A stretch of 64,000 bases of DNA, taken from positions 1-64,000 of the IMG/VR virus record IMGVR_UViG_3300022719_000071; one strand, 5' to 3'. The notes below the pieces were generated by a model. The model was not told the DNA's origin. It ran no database searches and saw only the letters and a program-made list of their open reading frames with translations. The position numbers were made by a program, and so were the translations under genes. Source of the stretch: a virus (Duplodnaviria; Caudoviricetes). Each line of letters begins with the position of its first letter. Positions within the stretch are counted from its first letter, which is position 1. Positions 12,442-60,576 of this stretch are shown here, piece after piece.

Positions 12442-13626
12442 TTACAAGCCCACTGAAGCATTCTCCAATAGCTTTTCACGGCTTGCCTTGCAACCACTAC
12501 GCTCCCACAGGATACGTAGCGTACGCATGGTTTCGCCGACCTTTGGACCCGGTTTCATGCCCAGGTCGAGTAGATCCTGTCCACGCACCGGGAATACCGG
12601 AGCTTCCCACATCTTCAGTGCTGCCACCAAATCGAAGTCTCCGAAGAACCGGGCGAATTCCTCGACGTGCTCACGCACGACGTGCTCCTTGACAATCTGA
12701 CGCTGGCACCAATTTAGGTCAAGGTTCACGAAGTCCTCACCATGCTCCTTGATCATCTGGGTCAAAGCAAGAAGCATGGTGGACTCCACCTTCGACAGCT
12801 TCCAGTTGGTGACCACATCCTGAGCATGCTTGATGTTTCCGTCCAGCAGACCAGCCAGAATCGTTACCGGCTTGGCACCCATGGAGTTAGCGATCCTGGA
12901 AAGTTCCTCGCCATCTCCCGTGATCATCAACGGAAGACCAACGGCGAACAGTACACCAGTCTGTTTCATGTCTTCCATCAGGAAGAGAAACGTTGGCGGC
13001 GGGACAACCAGGATTTTCTGCATCTCCATCCAGATACGCTCGCCAGAGATGCCCCTGAGACCTTCCACGTTCCGTTTGATGGCTTCCATGGTGAACGGAT
13101 CACCATCGACATGCAGGCGACCACAGAACCGAAAGTACCGCAGGATACGCAGGTAGTCTTCCTTGATGCGCTCGTCGGCATCACCCACGAACCGGACATG
13201 ATTGTCATCCAGATCGCTCTGACCGTTAAAGAAGTCATGCACGTTGCCATCCATGTCCAAGAACATGGCATTGATGGTCAAGTCACGTCGCTCCGCATCC
13301 TTCTGCCAGTCGTCAGTGAACACGACCTTGGTATGACGACCATCGGTCTCGGTATCGATGCGCAGGGTAGTGATCTCGAACGGCTCACCGTCCAGCACAG
13401 CGGTTACGGTGCCATGTTGAAGACCAGTCTCCACGACCGTGACACCAGCAGCACGCAAGATGTCCATGACATCAACCGGTAGCAAGGTAGTCGCAAGGTC
13501 GAAGTCCTTGGGGGTCTCTCCCAGCAGGAGGTCACGCACAGCGCCGCCAGCGACCCGGACATTGTTCTTACCCAGAATATCGGCCAGCGTGTGGACTTGA
13601 CTTGGAATGTGTTGCTTGAGGTTCAT
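12442..13626 (-). CDS. cca: CCA-adding enzyme (class II tRNA nucleotidyltransferase)
   Basis: GGAVRDLLLG..KDFDLAT (DxD), EITTLR, ERRDLTINAM, EDYLRILRYFRF, ISGERIWME. Confidence 0.95.
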   Translation of the reverse strand: MNLKQHIPSQVHTLADILGKNNVRVAGGAVRDLLLGETPKDFDLATTLLPVDVMDILRAAGVTVVETGLQHGTVTAVLDGEPFEITTLRIDTETDGRHTKVVFTDDWQKDAERRDLTINAMFLDMDGNVHDFFNGQSDLDDNHVRFVGDADERIKEDYLRILRYFRFCGRLHVDGDPFTMEAIKRNVEGLRGISGERIWMEMQKILVVPPPTFLFLMEDMKQTGVLFAVGLPLMITGDGEELSRIANSMGAKPVTILAGLLDGNIKHAQDVVTNWKLSKVESTMLLALTQMIKEHGEDFVNLDLNWCQRQIVKEHVVREHVEEFARFFGDFDLVAALKMWEAPVFPVRGQDLLDLGMKPGPKVGETMRTLRILWERSGCKASREKLLENASVGL

Positions 13627-22699: not shown

Positions 22700-22777
22700 T
22701 GGTGCCCCTGGAGGGATTCGAACCCCCGACGCAGGAATTTAGAGTTCCCCGCTCTGACCAGACTGAGCTACAGGAGC
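22700..22777 (-). tRNA. Amber suppressor tRNA (anticodon CTA)
   Basis: GCTCCTG/CAGGGGC-ACCA, GCTC/GAGC D stem, GGGAA-CTCTAAA-TTCCT anticodon arm, GGGGG-TTCGAAT-CCCTC. Confidence 0.9.
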
Positions 22778-34397: not shown

Positions 34398-34762
34398 CTT
34401 TACGATATCTATAGCCGGGATTCTGTCAAGAGCTATCATTCATCTTGGGGTATGCTTTTCAGCACCCCTCTTCGCCCCCTACCCGCCCCTCGTCGTGCCG
34501 AGTCATCAGAGCTGTCTGGAGTTGCACCGACCAGAGTTTGCTTCCGCAACATGTCGCCATGCTACGTGTGGTCTCTTACACCACCGTTCCACCTATTGCC
34601 TGTGCTCAACCTACCCGAAGGGTGAGCCATCGGCTGTCTGTCTCTATGGCACTTGTCCTCAGCATTACGCCGGGTGGGATTTCCCCACTGGTCTGCACTA
34701 TGGTGTCCCGAACTTCCTCTCTCCCAATAAAATGGGCCGAGCGATAGCTTGAATACCTGCAC
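34398..34762 (-). ncRNA. rnpB: Bacterial type-A RNase P RNA
   Basis: CR-I GAGGAAGTTCGGG (34707-34719), AGTGCCATAGAGA, GGAACGGTGGTGTAAGAG, GCAAACTC...GTGCAA, CR-V GACAGAATCCCGGCTATA (34410-34427); P2 GCTATC/GATAGC; upstream TTGCCT-17-TATATT promoter. Confidence 0.92.
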
Positions 34763-42170: not shown

Positions 42171-43382
42171 TCAGTTGAATTCCGTGGCATTGCCCTTCCG
42201 CAGCAGGTAGTCCGGGCTGATCATCTTGAGAGTCACCCGACCCAGCACGAAATCGTTTCGTTCTTTAACCGGAGTAATCACGATACCCTCCCGAATGTTG
42301 GCTCCGGTGATGGTATCCTTTCCGTCACGAAAGCTCTTGGCAGTATCCATGCTGAACGGACCATGGTACAGGACCGGTACCGTGGAAACCTCTAGCCAGG
42401 AGCACGTCTGCTTGAACTCCACGTGATCGAGGTATTGACCCTGACCCGGCTTGCCGACGTAGATGCCGAACACCAGAAAACTCTTCTCCTTCAGACCGTA
42501 GTGCAGATCTTGTACACCAGGACCGAAGGTCTCACCCAGGATGAACACGGGCTCGCCACGACGAACGGCCATGTCCATCACCTTGTTCCATCTACCAGTA
42601 TCCAGCATGTACTGCTTGAACATCCGAACGTACAGGTTCTTGTCATTGGCGTCGTTCCACTTGAATGCCAAACCCTGCTCGCTCAGACCCTTAGAGTTGA
42701 TGATGGTGCCACCGTGAAGAAGTTCCTCGTGATCCAGGTCCGGATCGAAGCCAAAGCACGTCCAGGTGCCGTGAAGCTTCTCGGTGATCACGACCTCCTC
42801 GCCCGAAACCAGAACCTCGTTGTGCTTCTGGATGTTCTCGATGTCGAACTTCAGAGTGTGGCCGAAGATGTTGCAGACCTCACCAGCCATGTGCGTCGGA
42901 ATGGGAGGCTCCCACTTGGTGATGCCAAGCACGTCTCCCACGTCCACGTCGATGCAACGAGACTTGATGGTCTCGATGTCCACGTCGTTCCAGTCATACA
43001 GCAGGTAGCTTTCGCCGTCGCTCAGATCGACACGAGGCAGACCGACAGTCTCTCCCTGAGACAGATCTGGGTCATCCCAAGACACCGGGTACAACAGACC
43101 CTGACTCACGACGCCACGCAGCTTGACAGCCTTGACACGATTGCCTTCTTTGCCTGCCAGCTTGCCTTTGCCTTTCTCCTCATCCCACAGACCCATGCGC
43201 TTCAGCAGCCACTCGGGCATGACCGCAGCCTCGGGGATGTACACGGCGATATCACCAGCCTTGTACTCACCGATGCGGGTGATGCAATCGAAGTCACGCA
43301 CCTTGGCGATCTCCAAGGCGTCGGCATTGGGATGGTCCTCGATGGCGTCGATACGGACGACTGGAACTGAAAATGTGGCCAT
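42171..43382 (-). CDS. RNA ligase, DRB0094/Rnl2-like
   Basis: N-terminal OB-like IEDHPNADALE, motif I EKLHGT, GETFG, motif IV REGIV, motif V LKMISPDYL. Confidence 0.93.
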   Translation of the reverse strand: MATFSVPVVRIDAIEDHPNADALEIAKVRDFDCITRIGEYKAGDIAVYIPEAAVMPEWLLKRMGLWDEEKGKGKLAGKEGNRVKAVKLRGVVSQGLLYPVSWDDPDLSQGETVGLPRVDLSDGESYLLYDWNDVDIETIKSRCIDVDVGDVLGITKWEPPIPTHMAGEVCNIFGHTLKFDIENIQKHNEVLVSGEEVVITEKLHGTWTCFGFDPDLDHEELLHGGTIINSKGLSEQGLAFKWNDANDKNLYVRMFKQYMLDTGRWNKVMDMAVRRGEPVFILGETFGPGVQDLHYGLKEKSFLVFGIYVGKPGQGQYLDHVEFKQTCSWLEVSTVPVLYHGPFSMDTAKSFRDGKDTITGANIREGIVITPVKERNDFVLGRVTLKMISPDYLLRKGNATEFN

Positions 43383-43489: not shown

Positions 43490-43569
43490 TGGAGCCCCAG
43501 ACAGGATTCGAACCCGCATGTGTCCAATTACCCTTTCATCGGGGTAGAAACCCGAGGGGATACAGGGGC
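43490..43569 (-). tRNA. Non-canonical tRNA-like RNA, Arg(TCT) loop, rearranged cloverleaf
   Basis: GCCCCTG/CTGGGGC-TCCA, T arm GCGGG-TTCGAAT-CCTGT, hairpin TCGGG-TTTCTAC-CCCGA enclosed by TATCC/GGGTA. Confidence 0.75.
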
Positions 43570-43735: not shown

Positions 43736-43779
43736 GTTGCGTACAGTATATTTATATCGACTCGACTCGAAAGTCAAGA

Positions 43780-47897: not shown

Positions 47898-47923
47898 AAA
47901 AAGGCTCCCGGAGGAGCCTTTTT
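47898..47923. terminator. Bidirectional intrinsic terminator
   Basis: AAAAAGGCTCC-CGGA-GGAGCCTTTTT. Confidence 0.85.
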
Positions 47924-47926
47924 ATT

Positions 47927-48015
47927 TGGTGGGTGTTCAAGGAATCGAACCTCCCGTCTACCACCCCACGGTTTTTTGACGCTGGTTTTACAGACCAGAG
48001 TGGGGAAAAACACCC
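47927..48015 (-). tRNA. Non-canonical tRNA-like RNA, Tyr(GTA) loop, rearranged cloverleaf
   Basis: GGGTGTT/AACACCC-ACCA, hairpin CTGGT-CTGTAAA-ACCAG enclosed by CCCCAC/GTGGGG, T loop GTTCGATTCC. Confidence 0.8.
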
Positions 48016-48138
48016 ATGTGTTTTGTATATTTATCACTCCTTGAATTGGAAGTCAATAGATTTAGTCCATATTCTGCCGAATATCTTTGCGAGGATAGAG
48101 TCAGTTATCGTTCGGCTCCAGAAGGATGGTCTTGTCGC

Positions 48139-50900: not shown

Positions 50901-51545
50901 TTAACCCTGTTCTAGTTCAGAACTCCAGTAAAGATAATCTTCCCAGGAATCATGCAGGTATTGCGGTGGGTACTTGCGTCCCTTGTTTTGAAGCTCATGG
51001 TACGATGGTTCGTATGGTTTACGAATCAGATGGTATCCATGTCGCTTTGCAAACTCCGCAGCCGACATATGGTCCTTTAGCTCGTTGATATCACGTCGAG
51101 CCGCAACGATGTTGTTCCAGGTTGACTGTCCACCCTTGGCACGGGGTACCACGTGATCGAACGTCAGGTCGCTCGGACGGCAACGCTCGCCAGTATATTG
51201 GCACGTAAAGTCGTCACGAAGGAAGATGTTGAACTTCGTGTACGGAACTCTAGTCGGCGGCGGAACGTAGTCCAAGTGAGCTACGACGGACGGCAGCCGA
51301 AACTTATTATGGGCACCACGGACGTAGACATCATCGTACTCCTCCACGACCTTGATGCGAGGAGTACCAGTGTTCATGCCCTTGACGAGCAAAAACATTA
51401 CCTGCTGCCAGTTCCAAGTGGACAGCGGATAATAAGACATCGGACGGAAGTCAGCGTTCAAACGGAGCACACGGAACCTGTCCAAATGCGATCCGGTCTC
51501 CTTGCTTCCCAATCCGTTTACATATTGAAGCTCTGCATTATCCAT
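50901..51545 (-). CDS. HNH endonuclease (McrA-like, host type)
   Basis: VLRLNADFRP, NIFLRDDFTCQYTG, LTFDHVVPRAKGG..W.NIV.A..N..K. Confidence 0.9.
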   Translation of the reverse strand: MDNAELQYVNGLGSKETGSHLDRFRVLRLNADFRPMSYYPLSTWNWQQVMFLLVKGMNTGTPRIKVVEEYDDVYVRGAHNKFRLPSVVAHLDYVPPPTRVPYTKFNIFLRDDFTCQYTGERCRPSDLTFDHVVPRAKGGQSTWNNIVAARRDINELKDHMSAAEFAKRHGYHLIRKPYEPSYHELQNKGRKYPPQYLHDSWEDYLYWSSELEQG

Positions 51546-58534: not shown

Positions 58535-58825
58535 GTGCCAGCAGCAACTAGAATTGGTGACGATGACGTTCCGCACTGCTCGCCTATGGTTAGGGCAGAA
58601 GGATCACCCGATGTGTTTGTCAATGGAATTCCGTGGAGCCGTGAAAGCGATGTCAACACTCCACATTTGCTCCCACCAGTCCCATGTCCTACCCACACCG
58701 CTCCAATTGCTATTGGCAGCACGACAGTATTTGTGAACAATCTGGGTGCTGGTCGTGTGGGTGATGCTATCACTGCATGCACATCGGTAGCTGAAGGTTC
58801 ACCAGACGTATTCGCTGGACCTTAA
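58535..58825 (+). CDS. PAAR-like baseplate spike tip (T4 gp5.4-like)
   Basis: PAATRIGD, GSPDVFVNG, H..H..GSTTVFVN, RVGD..C..EGSPDVF. Confidence 0.9.
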   Translation: MPAATRIGDDDVPHCSPMVRAEGSPDVFVNGIPWSRESDVNTPHLLPPVPCPTHTAPIAIGSTTVFVNNLGAGRVGDAITACTSVAEGSPDVFAGP

Positions 58826-60576
58826 CCAATCTTTTTCATCGACCATGAATACGTTGGATAGACTACGAGATCCGAATCAAACCCCTCGATTCTATATTCA
58901 CCGGTCTTGGCTAAGTTGTAGATGAGTTCTTGAGGATTCAAATTGTTGTCGTTGGAGAATTCTTCCACTGTGCTTTCGTCCTCGTAGTCCATCTCCTTGC
59001 CCATGTCGATAATCACGCCCTTGATTTCAATACTCCAATCTAATGGGTCACCGGGATCTCCCGTTGCTGACACTCGAATGATTGCGTTGTCATCAAATGG
59101 AACAATGATGATACCCATTGCTAAGAGGTCTTCTTCTCCCATGCCATCACCAGCCGTGATGGTGGTCTCACTCTTCAAGTGCTTGAGTAATTCTTCAACC
59201 TGCGGCCAATACTTCTTCACAGGGGGCTCGTTTTCTTTACCCTTGATTTGTTCGATTGCAATACCCTGTGCATCCTTCATCTCAAACGGACGAAGTTCCA
59301 CAGTAACATGTGGATTGTTTTTAGAGTCACGAAGTGACAGAATGATTGCTTCATCGCTTTCTACATCATCGATGTAATCTGCAACACAGTGACCCATCAA
59401 GTTACCTTCACGGTCAAGGCATGATGGTCCCGTTAGCTTCCACCATTGACCATTCTGTCCGAGGTCCAGGTACAGTTCTTTGTCTCCCTCTTCCTCAATG
59501 TCTGCTTCTTTTCTACGTTTGAGTTCTTCGTGATATTTCTCGGTACCTTGAAGAGCTTGAGCCCAAGACATTCTGTTGAGTCGATGTGGCTCAAGCAATT
59601 GCGGATTAGTACGTGACAAATTTCTGAACCAGTCTGCAATCATCCGTGTTTGATAATCCAGTCCTCCCCTTCCAAAAATGGCTTTGCTGTCCAGGAAGTA
59701 TATCTCTTCGCCCCGTTGGAGAGCATTTGCAGCCCAGACTGGCAATGACAGAGTTTGCTCTTGAGTGCGTCCACTCAGGATACCGAATGTTTCAGGGTCG
59801 TTTGGATATTGAATGACAGCAGCACCCTGAACAATCTTCTGTTTGTCTGCGTCAGGAGGGATGATATCCATCAACTCGTACTGTATGATTTTCTTAGCAG
59901 GGAAATTGTTGATGACATACTTTCGCATGGATCTCTTTGCCCATTCAGCGACATGCACACCGAACTGAGCAAAAGAGTCAGAGAAACGATCAGCAGCATC
60001 TATCGCCATTTCAGGATTCAGCAGGTTGCGCTCGAATAGGATATCTTCGTTAGTACGTTCTTTACGACGACGCTCGGTACTTTCGTTGAATTTGTGTTCC
60101 CAAGGCTGCTCGTATTCTCGGTCGATATACAGCGGGAAGGTAGGAAGAAGGAGGCTCTCCAGGTTATTCAGTTCTTTGGGATCGACACTAACAGTAATGT
60201 GTGGCTGATAGTGGTCATGGTCATAATGGATACCATGTTCTTTACGTGCCTTGTTATGACGTTCTTCTAGCTCAGGGCAGGAAAACGTCAGAACGACGCA
60301 CTCATTCTCACCCCCGAAGCGTTGAAGCTTATACGTAGAAGCATCGACTTCTAGGGGTGGATCAAATACAGCGGGAGTCCAATCGAAATTCCTAGTCTTA
60401 TCGCCAATGACGGTGATGTGGAGACGAGCACGTGGGACACGCTTACGCAAGCCCGTCTCACGCATCCAGTGCATGAGATTGCGTTCAGATTCTCGGGTAA
60501 GGCGGGCTCCAACAAACTTTCCGGGTTCGCTGGTGTCATCCTCCCGAATGATGTCCAGGAACTCCAGGAGTTTCAT
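58822..60576 (-). CDS. 2H phosphoesterase (Acb1/gp57B-like) fused to PcfJ-like domain
   Basis: LHITV and PHITV (two HxT motifs) in the first 160 aa; C-term EGNLMGHCVADY..ILSLRD..PHVTVE..IEQIKGKEN. Confidence 0.75.
   Translation of the reverse strand: MKLLEFLDIIREDDTSEPGKFVGARLTRESERNLMHWMRETGLRKRVPRARLHITVIGDKTRNFDWTPAVFDPPLEVDASTYKLQRFGGENECVVLTFSCPELEERHNKARKEHGIHYDHDHYQPHITVSVDPKELNNLESLLLPTFPLYIDREYEQPWEHKFNESTERRRKERTNEDILFERNLLNPEMAIDAADRFSDSFAQFGVHVAEWAKRSMRKYVINNFPAKKIIQYELMDIIPPDADKQKIVQGAAVIQYPNDPETFGILSGRTQEQTLSLPVWAANALQRGEEIYFLDSKAIFGRGGLDYQTRMIADWFRNLSRTNPQLLEPHRLNRMSWAQALQGTEKYHEELKRRKEADIEEEGDKELYLDLGQNGQWWKLTGPSCLDREGNLMGHCVADYIDDVESDEAIILSLRDSKNNPHVTVELRPFEMKDAQGIAIEQIKGKENEPPVKKYWPQVEELLKHLKSETTITAGDGMGEEDLLAMGIIIVPFDDNAIIRVSATGDPGDPLDWSIEIKGVIIDMGKEMDYEDESTVEEFSNDNNLNPQELIYNLAKTGEYRIEGFDSDLVVYPTYSWSMKKIG

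Follow-up and report, generated by a model that had tools for sequence, protein, structure and literature searches.

Comparative analysis of viral and bacterial homologues supports a rewired topology for a tRNA-Tyr(GUA) gene of a large phage, and supports the view that this topology is both real and selected. In the predicted structure, one strand of the D helix lies in front of the anticodon arm, while its partner strand and the D-loop GG lie behind it, such that the D helix closes across the anticodon arm and is crossed by the variable stem. The fold as drawn is very likely correct. The gene is located in the first 64 kb (64,000 nucleotides, hereafter the window) of a 360,469-bp virus record that belongs to a phage of the T4 superfamily. 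A second gene in the window, for tRNA-Arg(UCU), carries a related rearrangement.

Layout of the rewired tRNA-Tyr gene

Read on the minus strand, the first half of the Tyr gene consists of GGGTGTT, TTT, CCCCAC, T, the anticodon arm (CTGGT/CTGTAAA/ACCAG), and CGTC; the second half consists of an A-rich linker, GTGGGG, TGGTA, GACG, G, a T arm with the loop TTCGATT, the 3′ acceptor strand, and ACCA (Table 1). The canonical parts include a 5-bp anticodon stem, a 7-nt anticodon loop with U33 and a purine at position 37, a 7-nt T loop, and an NCCA end. The identity set established for TyrRS, namely G1-C72, A73, GUA, and a long variable stem, is present in full.

Merely 10 nt separate the acceptor stem from the anticodon arm, confirming the sequence-only reading of this gene, according to which the D hairpin is missing at this position. 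The long-range pairing proposed in its place also held: CCCCAC and GTGGGG form a perfect 6-bp match across the anticodon arm with compensatory changes in homologues, and the TGG directly 3′ of GTGGGG was rightly likened to the D-loop GG, which is conserved in the family. Two other proposals were retained in part. The anticodon arm is indeed nested within the D-like stem, but a second helix, CGTC/GACG, encloses GTGGGG, so that the variable stem and the D helix cross and form a pseudoknot rather than nesting alone. Likewise, the ACCA end and the normal T loop stand as described, whereas the acceptor stem, given as 7 bp, has 8 bp (with an extra U.G pair) and the T stem has 4 bp; with this 8/4 reading, the apparent G.G mismatch at 49:65 disappears.

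Table 1. Features of the two rewired tRNA genes and candidate signals flanking the Tyr gene (window coordinates)
Feature	Position	Strand	Remarks
tRNA-Tyr(GUA), predicted internally permuted D domain	47927..48015	-	89 nt; 8/4 acceptor/T branch; pseudoknot; encoded CCA
Acceptor 5′ strand, 8 bp (G1 to extra U7a)	48008..48015	-	Partner 47931-47938
CCCCAC, first D-helix strand	48000..48005	-	Would take the three-dimensional role of canonical 20-25
Anticodon arm, 5-bp stem and canonical loop	47982..47998	-	Anticodon GTA at 47991-47989
CGTC, variable stem 5′ strand (tRNA-Tyr type)	47978..47981	-	Partner 47955-47958
A-rich pseudoknot linker	47970..47977	-	In the family mostly 7-9 nt and A/U-rich
GTGGGG, relocated D-helix strand (probable canonical 10-15)	47964..47969	-	Within the variable-arm loop
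TGGTA, relocated D loop (U16, G18, G19)	47959..47963	-	U16 matches T-loop U59
GACG, variable stem 3′ strand	47955..47958	-	Compensatory pairing in homologues
T arm, 4-bp stem and canonical 7-nt loop	47939..47953	-	From sequence-only alignment
3′ acceptor strand, discriminator A73, encoded CCA	47927..47938	-	Read directly from the gene
Promoter-like motif TTGAC-N18-TAAATATA	48026..48056	-	10 nt ahead of G1
Symmetric terminator-like hairpin and U run	47898..47923	-	-15.6 kcal/mol; 3 nt past CCA
tRNA-Arg(UCU), class-I build	43490..43569	-	7/5 branch; U8 A9; U48; U6.U67 mismatch; U73

As had been anticipated, standard scanners miss the rewired gene. Neither ARAGORN nor Rfam at its gathering score called it, the best Rfam match being tRNA-Sec (RF01852) at 24.8 bits (E 0.21; cut-off 47). 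At a lowered threshold, ARAGORN yielded nothing but noise, and it called none of 63 viral copies of the rewired class. The single-sequence minimum-energy fold computed with ViennaRNA was another structure that lacks the anticodon hairpin (-27.7 kcal/mol versus -26.0 for the nested model), with a z score of -0.43; pseudoknots are outside what such folding can score. Single-sequence folding was thus uninformative, and homologues were needed. When the segment behind the anticodon arm of the Tyr gene alone was shuffled, GTGGGG arose in 1.8% of cases and both helices in the right order in 0.07%; the family evidence for the predicted D helix, described below, is far stronger. Returning the moved block in silico led ARAGORN to call both Tyr and Arg, but a shuffled block did nearly as well (54 versus 57 of 57), and this experiment was therefore not counted as evidence.

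Comparative evidence for the topology

Unannotated homologues were found by BLAST in the Pseudomonas phages Rembedalsseter and SCYZ1. The Rembedalsseter copy has compensatory changes in its acceptor and anticodon stems, and it keeps both CCCCAC/GTGGGG and CGTC/GACG. In IMG/VR, the first exact pattern was too strict and gave no match, and a pattern presupposing the D pairing was used solely to show that relatives exist. To avoid circularity, the census was then redone blind, using a pattern built from the Tyr loop and, beyond a long gap, the T loop with ACCA, with no requirement for the D helix. Retaining matches with a paired acceptor stem, a paired anticodon stem, and a short 5′ segment gave 60 distinct viral genes among the matches listed, in which the D helix was 97% paired. 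In 70% of these same 60 listed genes, the two segments share at least six Watson-Crick pairs, versus 1.2% when segments were combined across genes, 1.7% when reversed, and 5.2% when shuffled. With G-U pairs allowed, 55 of 58 genes among the matches listed pair at all six D-helix positions, and they do so with 25 different hexamers.

A model of 27 base pairs was evaluated on a sequence-only alignment, in which 96% of the cells pair and 354 double changes occur; none of 500 shuffles reached 96%, and slid registers gave 38-59%. Under a tree-aware null, in which substitutions were moved along the tree, the top 14 column pairs all fell within the model; four of them are D-helix pairs, and a single variable-stem pair and the eighth pair of the acceptor are also included. 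Tests based on independent pairs had few supported branches: one D pair reached a p value of 0.03, and the others pointed in the same direction with significance out of reach. An absence of compensatory changes in homologues had been named in advance as grounds for abandoning the topology. Such changes were sought and were found in the D helix, the variable stem, and the eighth acceptor pair, and since they persist under the tree-aware null, the topology is not refuted. These comparisons show five predicted helices: an 8-bp acceptor stem, a 6-bp D helix that spans the anticodon arm, the anticodon stem, a 4-bp variable stem that crosses the D helix, and a 4-bp T stem.

A search of GTDB returned 92 matches representing 72 distinct Tyr genes, mostly in tRNA arrays of Planctomycetota. 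The 8/4 branch is present in 71 of these 72 genes, and in the viral set the extra pair 7a:65 is standard in all 58 genes among the matches listed, with five pair types, versus eight of 58 for 49:65. All four pairs of the variable stem form in 53 of 58 viral genes among the matches listed and in 65 of 72 GTDB genes. At positions that were not imposed by the search, A73 occurs in 71 and G1-C72 in 69 of the 72 GTDB genes. A U.U mismatch interrupts the T stem at 50:64 in 28 of the 58 viral members among the matches listed. The family model R1, which includes the gene described here, scores it at 91.1 bits.

Predicted three-dimensional arrangement

Judged by the fold, the RNA is expected to be an L-shaped tRNA whose D domain is permuted internally. 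As the strand that leads into the anticodon stem, CCCCAC has to occupy positions 20-25, and GTGGGG consequently stands for positions 10-15, followed by 16, G18, and G19; we infer from the model that a block equivalent to positions 10 to 20 effectively sits in the loop of the variable arm. Put back in order, the Tyr gene is a predicted 8/4 cloverleaf with a 6-bp D stem. As drawn, the chain would continue from U8-U9 as strand 20-25 of the D helix, descend to the anticodon arm, and then pass out along the variable stem, returning via the A-rich linker to rise in the D helix as strand 10-15. U16, G18, and G19 would thereby be placed on the T loop in the fashion of tRNA-Sec, and passage of the chain back through the variable stem to the T arm would give a normal L-shape.

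In tRNA-Sec, a 6-bp D stem and a 4-nt loop are accompanied by a C16:C59 or U16:U59 contact (PMC7609411). Suggestive covariation of the same kind is seen here between the base before the relocated GG and T-loop position 59: among viral genes in the matches listed, the combination is C-C in 10 and U-U in 41, and in the separate GTDB set it is C-C in 15 and U-U in 52 of 72. After correction for kinship, this signal is not significant (E 2.4, with three independent pairs only). The earlier suggestion that an alternative topology may still give an L-shape has indirect backing from three features: conservation of the GG, the stacked acceptor/T branch of 12 bp, and the 16:59 match, the last of which loses significance once kinship is considered.

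A second build in tRNA-Arg and the extent of the class

In the Arg(UCU) gene of the window, TCCC lies before the anticodon arm, and GGGT together with the whole D loop (AATTGGACA) lies behind it. The relocated D loop is almost identical to the D loops of the canonical Arg genes in the same genome. The gene closes a Glu-Glu-Arg cluster, which has the same promoter motif as the Tyr gene, at 43777. The sequence-only reading had proposed a single covariance model for both rewired genes. The strand swap is indeed shared, but the Arg gene is built differently (7/5, without a long variable stem), and one model therefore does not cover both (20.9 versus 91.1 bits). In 75 distinct class-I Arg homologues, pairs 11:24 and 12:23 are standard in 100%, with four types each, and three Watson-Crick pairs form in 77%, versus 0.8% across genes. 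The Levitt pair 15:48 is A-U in 68 and G-C in 4 of these 75 genes, which were found by a search that required TGGA. The strand swap is thus present in a second build as well, one that retains the class I tertiary core.

All loci examined contain 123 distinct Tyr genes, along with 20 pseudoknotted and 60 class-I Arg(UCU) genes, counts that are biased by the anticodon-seeded searches; a few rewired genes have other anticodons (Arg ACG, CCU, UCG, and GCG; Ile GAU). The class would thus include at least two builds, one 8/4, pseudoknotted, and tRNA-Sec-like (Tyr, Arg) and the other 7/5 and class I (Arg, Ile). Cultured carriers of the Arg build are Streptomyces phage Mildred21 (anticodon UCG) and Microbacterium phage A3Wally (ACG, unannotated). 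The Mildred21 gene (L472:401-476) is annotated as tRNA-Phe(gaa) and is a class-I rewired tRNA with the Arg anticodon UCG, directly behind an HNH gene.

A longer Tyr variant (L222:2771-2868, minus strand), which has a 7/5 branch, UA at positions 8-9, and an extended variable region, stands between the two builds. Separately, another RNA that recurs in six loci (L123, L151, L176, L182, L196, and L200) ends in a T arm and is not a cloverleaf; it has a hairpin and a GUUUGGGGC-type loop before the T arm, and its 3′ end is TACGGAG-ACCA.

Expression signals and genomic distribution

The motif TTGAC-N18-TAAATATA has four copies in the genome versus 0.18 expected, each upstream of tRNA genes, and TTGACA-type promoters precede the homologues in Rembedalsseter and SCYZ1. 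A consensus scan called neither the promoter motif nor the terminator hairpin of the Tyr gene. Together, the promoter-like motif and the terminator-like hairpin suggest a stand-alone Tyr transcript.

The median viral locus of the class contains 11 other tRNAs, and lone promoter-driven copies occur in 45-kb phages. A canonical Tyr gene is present in none of 28 arrays with at least 20 other tRNAs, in which all 19 other amino acids occur; these arrays, like the genes counted, are related and thus not independent of one another. The hosts checked carry a canonical-looking Tyr gene elsewhere, and three of eight large phage records appear to carry both a canonical and a rewired Tyr gene, indicating that the rewired Tyr is not essential. 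Judged by this distribution, the class is accessory and mobile, yet acts like the Tyr member of a set.

Function and alternative explanations

The best explanation, which we consider fairly likely, is that the gene encodes a working accessory tRNA-Tyr, charged by the host and serving as a backup, with its D domain wired in another order. That the rewired tRNA-Tyr is charged and used in decoding is probable. Under this model, the Tyr gene would be transcribed alone from a phage tRNA-type promoter, its transcript would be trimmed at the 5′ end by RNase P (either that of the host or one using the phage RNA at 34400-34757), and the product would be charged by host TyrRS through G1-C72, A73, GUA, and the long variable stem for use on the ribosome. 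The weakest step is the benefit, which would be a Tyr decoder that host tRNA-destroying defenses recognize poorly, as we propose, owing to the altered structural surroundings of its anticodon arm. Retron-Eco7 PtuAB depletes host tRNA-Tyr and a phage tRNA-Tyr rescues (PMC11555353). OLD cleaves the anticodon stem, and phage variants are resistant to it (PMC12445682). 8/4 tRNAs function in E. coli translation, and some odd allo-tRNAs are inactive in translation or are charged yet unused (PMC5389517). The anticodon loop of the rewired gene is fully canonical, so nucleases that read the loop alone would not be evaded, and the U.U mismatch at 50:64 seen in 28 of 58 listed viral members lies near the EF-Tu binding site, a point against a working tRNA. 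Selection of the rewiring for escape from tRNA-destroying defenses is accordingly proposed with some reserve. Equally tentative is the broader picture of a natural and widespread bacterial-type tRNA class that is charged and read by the ribosome without a cloverleaf, and whose phage decoders may be poorly recognized by tRNA-cutting defenses.

An RNA of the same fold could instead serve as a decoy or mimic that binds a tRNA-Tyr nuclease, a tRNA sensor, or TyrRS without decoding. Such a role would fit the lone promoter-driven copies in 45-kb phages, the coexistence with canonical-looking Tyr genes in hosts and in three of eight large phage records, the weak T stem of many members, and the precedent of irregular tRNAs that are charged but unused (PMC5389517). 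It is nevertheless unlikely, given that the rewired gene fills the Tyr slot of near-complete tRNA sets, that several sense anticodons (Arg UCU, ACG, CCU, UCG, and GCG; Ile GAU) are found with the same swap, and that the 12-bp branch, A73, and G1-C72 are all maintained. Another alternative, which differs from the best explanation solely in why the form exists, is a working tRNA whose rewiring is neutral or acts at the DNA level, reducing likeness to host tRNA genes as targets of integration, recombination, or homing endonucleases. The Arg homologues in Mildred21 and A3Wally are directly behind HNH endonuclease genes, and a canonical anticodon loop would not escape loop-reading nucleases, both of which favor this idea. 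However, no HNH gene was identified beside either gene here (one was found at 50901-51545), and the 3′ half, the usual integrase target, is canonical. Colicin D is a nuclease acting on tRNA-Arg. Tyr and Arg, known nuclease targets (PMC11555353 for Tyr), dominate the class in searches seeded with those anticodons, which also argues against a DNA-level or neutral origin and leaves it distinctly improbable.

Conservation of the synthetase identity elements would equally suit a Tyr-charged RNA that donates its aminoacyl group to a phage enzyme instead of serving the ribosome. Use of charged tRNA by phage enzymes is reported; however, a shared partner gene was not noticed in an informal look at neighbors, and most copies lie among ordinary tRNA genes (median of 11 others per locus), making this role very improbable. 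It is extremely unlikely that the transcript is a precursor in scrambled order from which cutting and ligation produce a cloverleaf, as with the permuted tRNA genes of red algae and archaea. A phage RNA ligase gene lies just downstream of the Arg gene (42171-43382), and the block put back in silico gives a cloverleaf, albeit in a test without discriminating power (54 of 57 in the shuffled control); an internal swap, by comparison, would require the RNA to be cut three times and joined three times, the mature 5′ and 3′ ends are in position from the start, a bulge-helix-bulge-type motif was not noticed, and copies stand alone in small phages as well as occurring in bacterial arrays. Finally, the rejection of the gene by scanners and its unremarkable single-sequence folding are what would be expected of a decayed or D-armless tRNA (like mitochondrial tRNA-Ser) with complementarity by chance, a reading that is almost certainly wrong, being refuted by compensatory changes in the D helix and the variable stem across more than 120 distinct genes; promoter, CCA, and terminator are, moreover, intact.

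Relation to known tRNAs

The rewired gene is best regarded, from its predicted structure, as a structural variant of tRNA that resembles class II tRNA-Tyr without being a cloverleaf, and that is distinct from allo-tRNAs, tRNA-Sec, D-armless tRNAs, permuted tRNAs, and YrlA RNAs. It shares with class II tRNA-Tyr(GUA) (RF00005; e.g., the canonical Planctomycetota genes in L451 and L467) G1-C72, A73, the loop CUGUAAA, a CCC directly after U8-U9, a normal T loop, and a short variable stem similar in sequence type. In contrast to that cloverleaf, a D hairpin is absent, the D partner strand and GG are in the variable loop, the branch is 8/4 rather than 7/5, and there is a pseudoknot. As in tRNA-Sec and 8/4 allo-tRNAs (PMC7609411 and PMC5389517), there are a 6-bp D helix, a 4-5 nt loop, a long variable arm, a pyrimidine match at 16:59, and, in common with allo-tRNA, an 8/4 branch of 12 bp. 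Those RNAs are true cloverleaves, and their identity is Ser, Ala, Cys, His, or Sec, whereas here the identity is Tyr and the D helix forms across the anticodon arm. The Tyr gene has the 8-bp acceptor, 4-bp T stem, and long variable arm that mark allo-tRNAs, but a long-range D helix, A73, and GUA in place of their contiguous D stem-tetraloop and G73 or U73 with Ser/Ala identity. From tRNA-Sec (RF01852) it is set apart by GUA instead of UCA, a branch of 12 bp instead of 13 bp, and a score of 24.8 bits, below the gathering cut-off of 47. In E. coli, the allo-tRNAs of PMC5389517 undergo processing and charging and are carried by EF-Tu, and the main text of that paper describes neither an 8/4 Tyr nor a pseudoknot.

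D-armless mitochondrial tRNA-Ser and the synthetic mini HisT (PMC11551756) are likewise non-cloverleaf adaptors without a D hairpin between the acceptor and the anticodon arm. They lose the D domain and are Y-shaped, whereas here a covarying 6-bp D helix is present and the helix and elbow residues appear to be rebuilt from relocated strands. Circularly permuted tRNA genes are known from Cyanidioschyzon and Thermofilum, and YrlA Y RNAs likewise carry tRNA parts in altered order. In those cases the ends are moved and restored by processing, or the acceptor is closed and the RNA is not charged; the Tyr gene, in contrast, has a normal 5′ end and a 3′ ACCA, the relocated block lying inside. PMC11551756 describes every known bacterial tRNA as a cloverleaf. 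No description of the rewired layout was found in the literature searched, the coverage of which is incomplete, such that earlier publication is possible. A viral candidate RNA listed in PMC10690425, DNAVirus_1423, sometimes overlaps tRNA-Tyr calls; it may be the rewired Tyr family, with the topology undescribed there.

A natural family with another connectivity could show which tRNA features are read by synthetases, RNase P, EF-Tu, and the ribosome, i.e., shape and not strand order. Cultured phages are available for such studies: Rembedalsseter and SCYZ1 for the Tyr gene, and Mildred21 and A3Wally for the Arg build. Phage tRNA inventories need correction, as Tyr and Arg genes have been missed and the Mildred21 gene is labeled Phe. 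In addition, rewired tRNAs may reveal structural escape from tRNA-targeting immunity and may offer a scaffold for orthogonal tRNAs.

The phage and its tRNA inventory

The gp23-type capsid protein is 62% identical to that of Sinorhizobium phage Phosso and approximately 56% identical to those of GAP32/CBB-like jumbo phages. A close relative was not found, 62% being the top capsid match and an RNA ligase search giving none. ARAGORN identified 42 tRNAs and one tmRNA in the full record. No canonical Tyr or Arg(UCU) gene was found there, and the two rewired genes are the sole intact bearers of those anticodons. A tRNA-Asn gene was not found in the record, which is approximately 91% complete; the other amino acids are covered if the rewired Tyr is counted. 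A simple pattern search of the genome did not find a class I synthetase motif.

The window also encodes a class A RNase P RNA (34400-34757, minus strand; 168 bits). A tRNA maintenance kit is represented by the RNA ligase (PF09414; minus strand) just downstream of the rewired Arg gene, a gene of the poly(A) polymerase/CCA-adding family (12442-13626, minus strand), and ORFs that by eye resemble T4 Rnl1 and polynucleotide kinase (G000:C1:81806-86083 of the full record). A canonical tRNA at 22700-22777 (minus strand) has the amber-suppressor anticodon CUA; long ORFs stop at TAA in 80, TGA in 57, and TAG in 9 cases, and wholesale recoding is not evident. A Lys-UUU-like tRNA with a canonical D arm and a loop that starts CTTTTA (G000:C1:277752-277868 of the full record, plus strand, equivalent to L471:153-269) has an intron-like insertion of approximately 40 nt just 3′ of the anticodon; it scores 45.5 bits with Rfam, is not called by ARAGORN, and is the only Lys(UUU) gene found in the record. 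A tRNA-Gln(UUG) gene (G000:C1:244550-244629 of the full record, plus strand) has an unusually long D region. Finally, an Acb1-type anti-CBASS domain is fused to a PcfJ-like domain in the window at 58822-60576 (minus strand).
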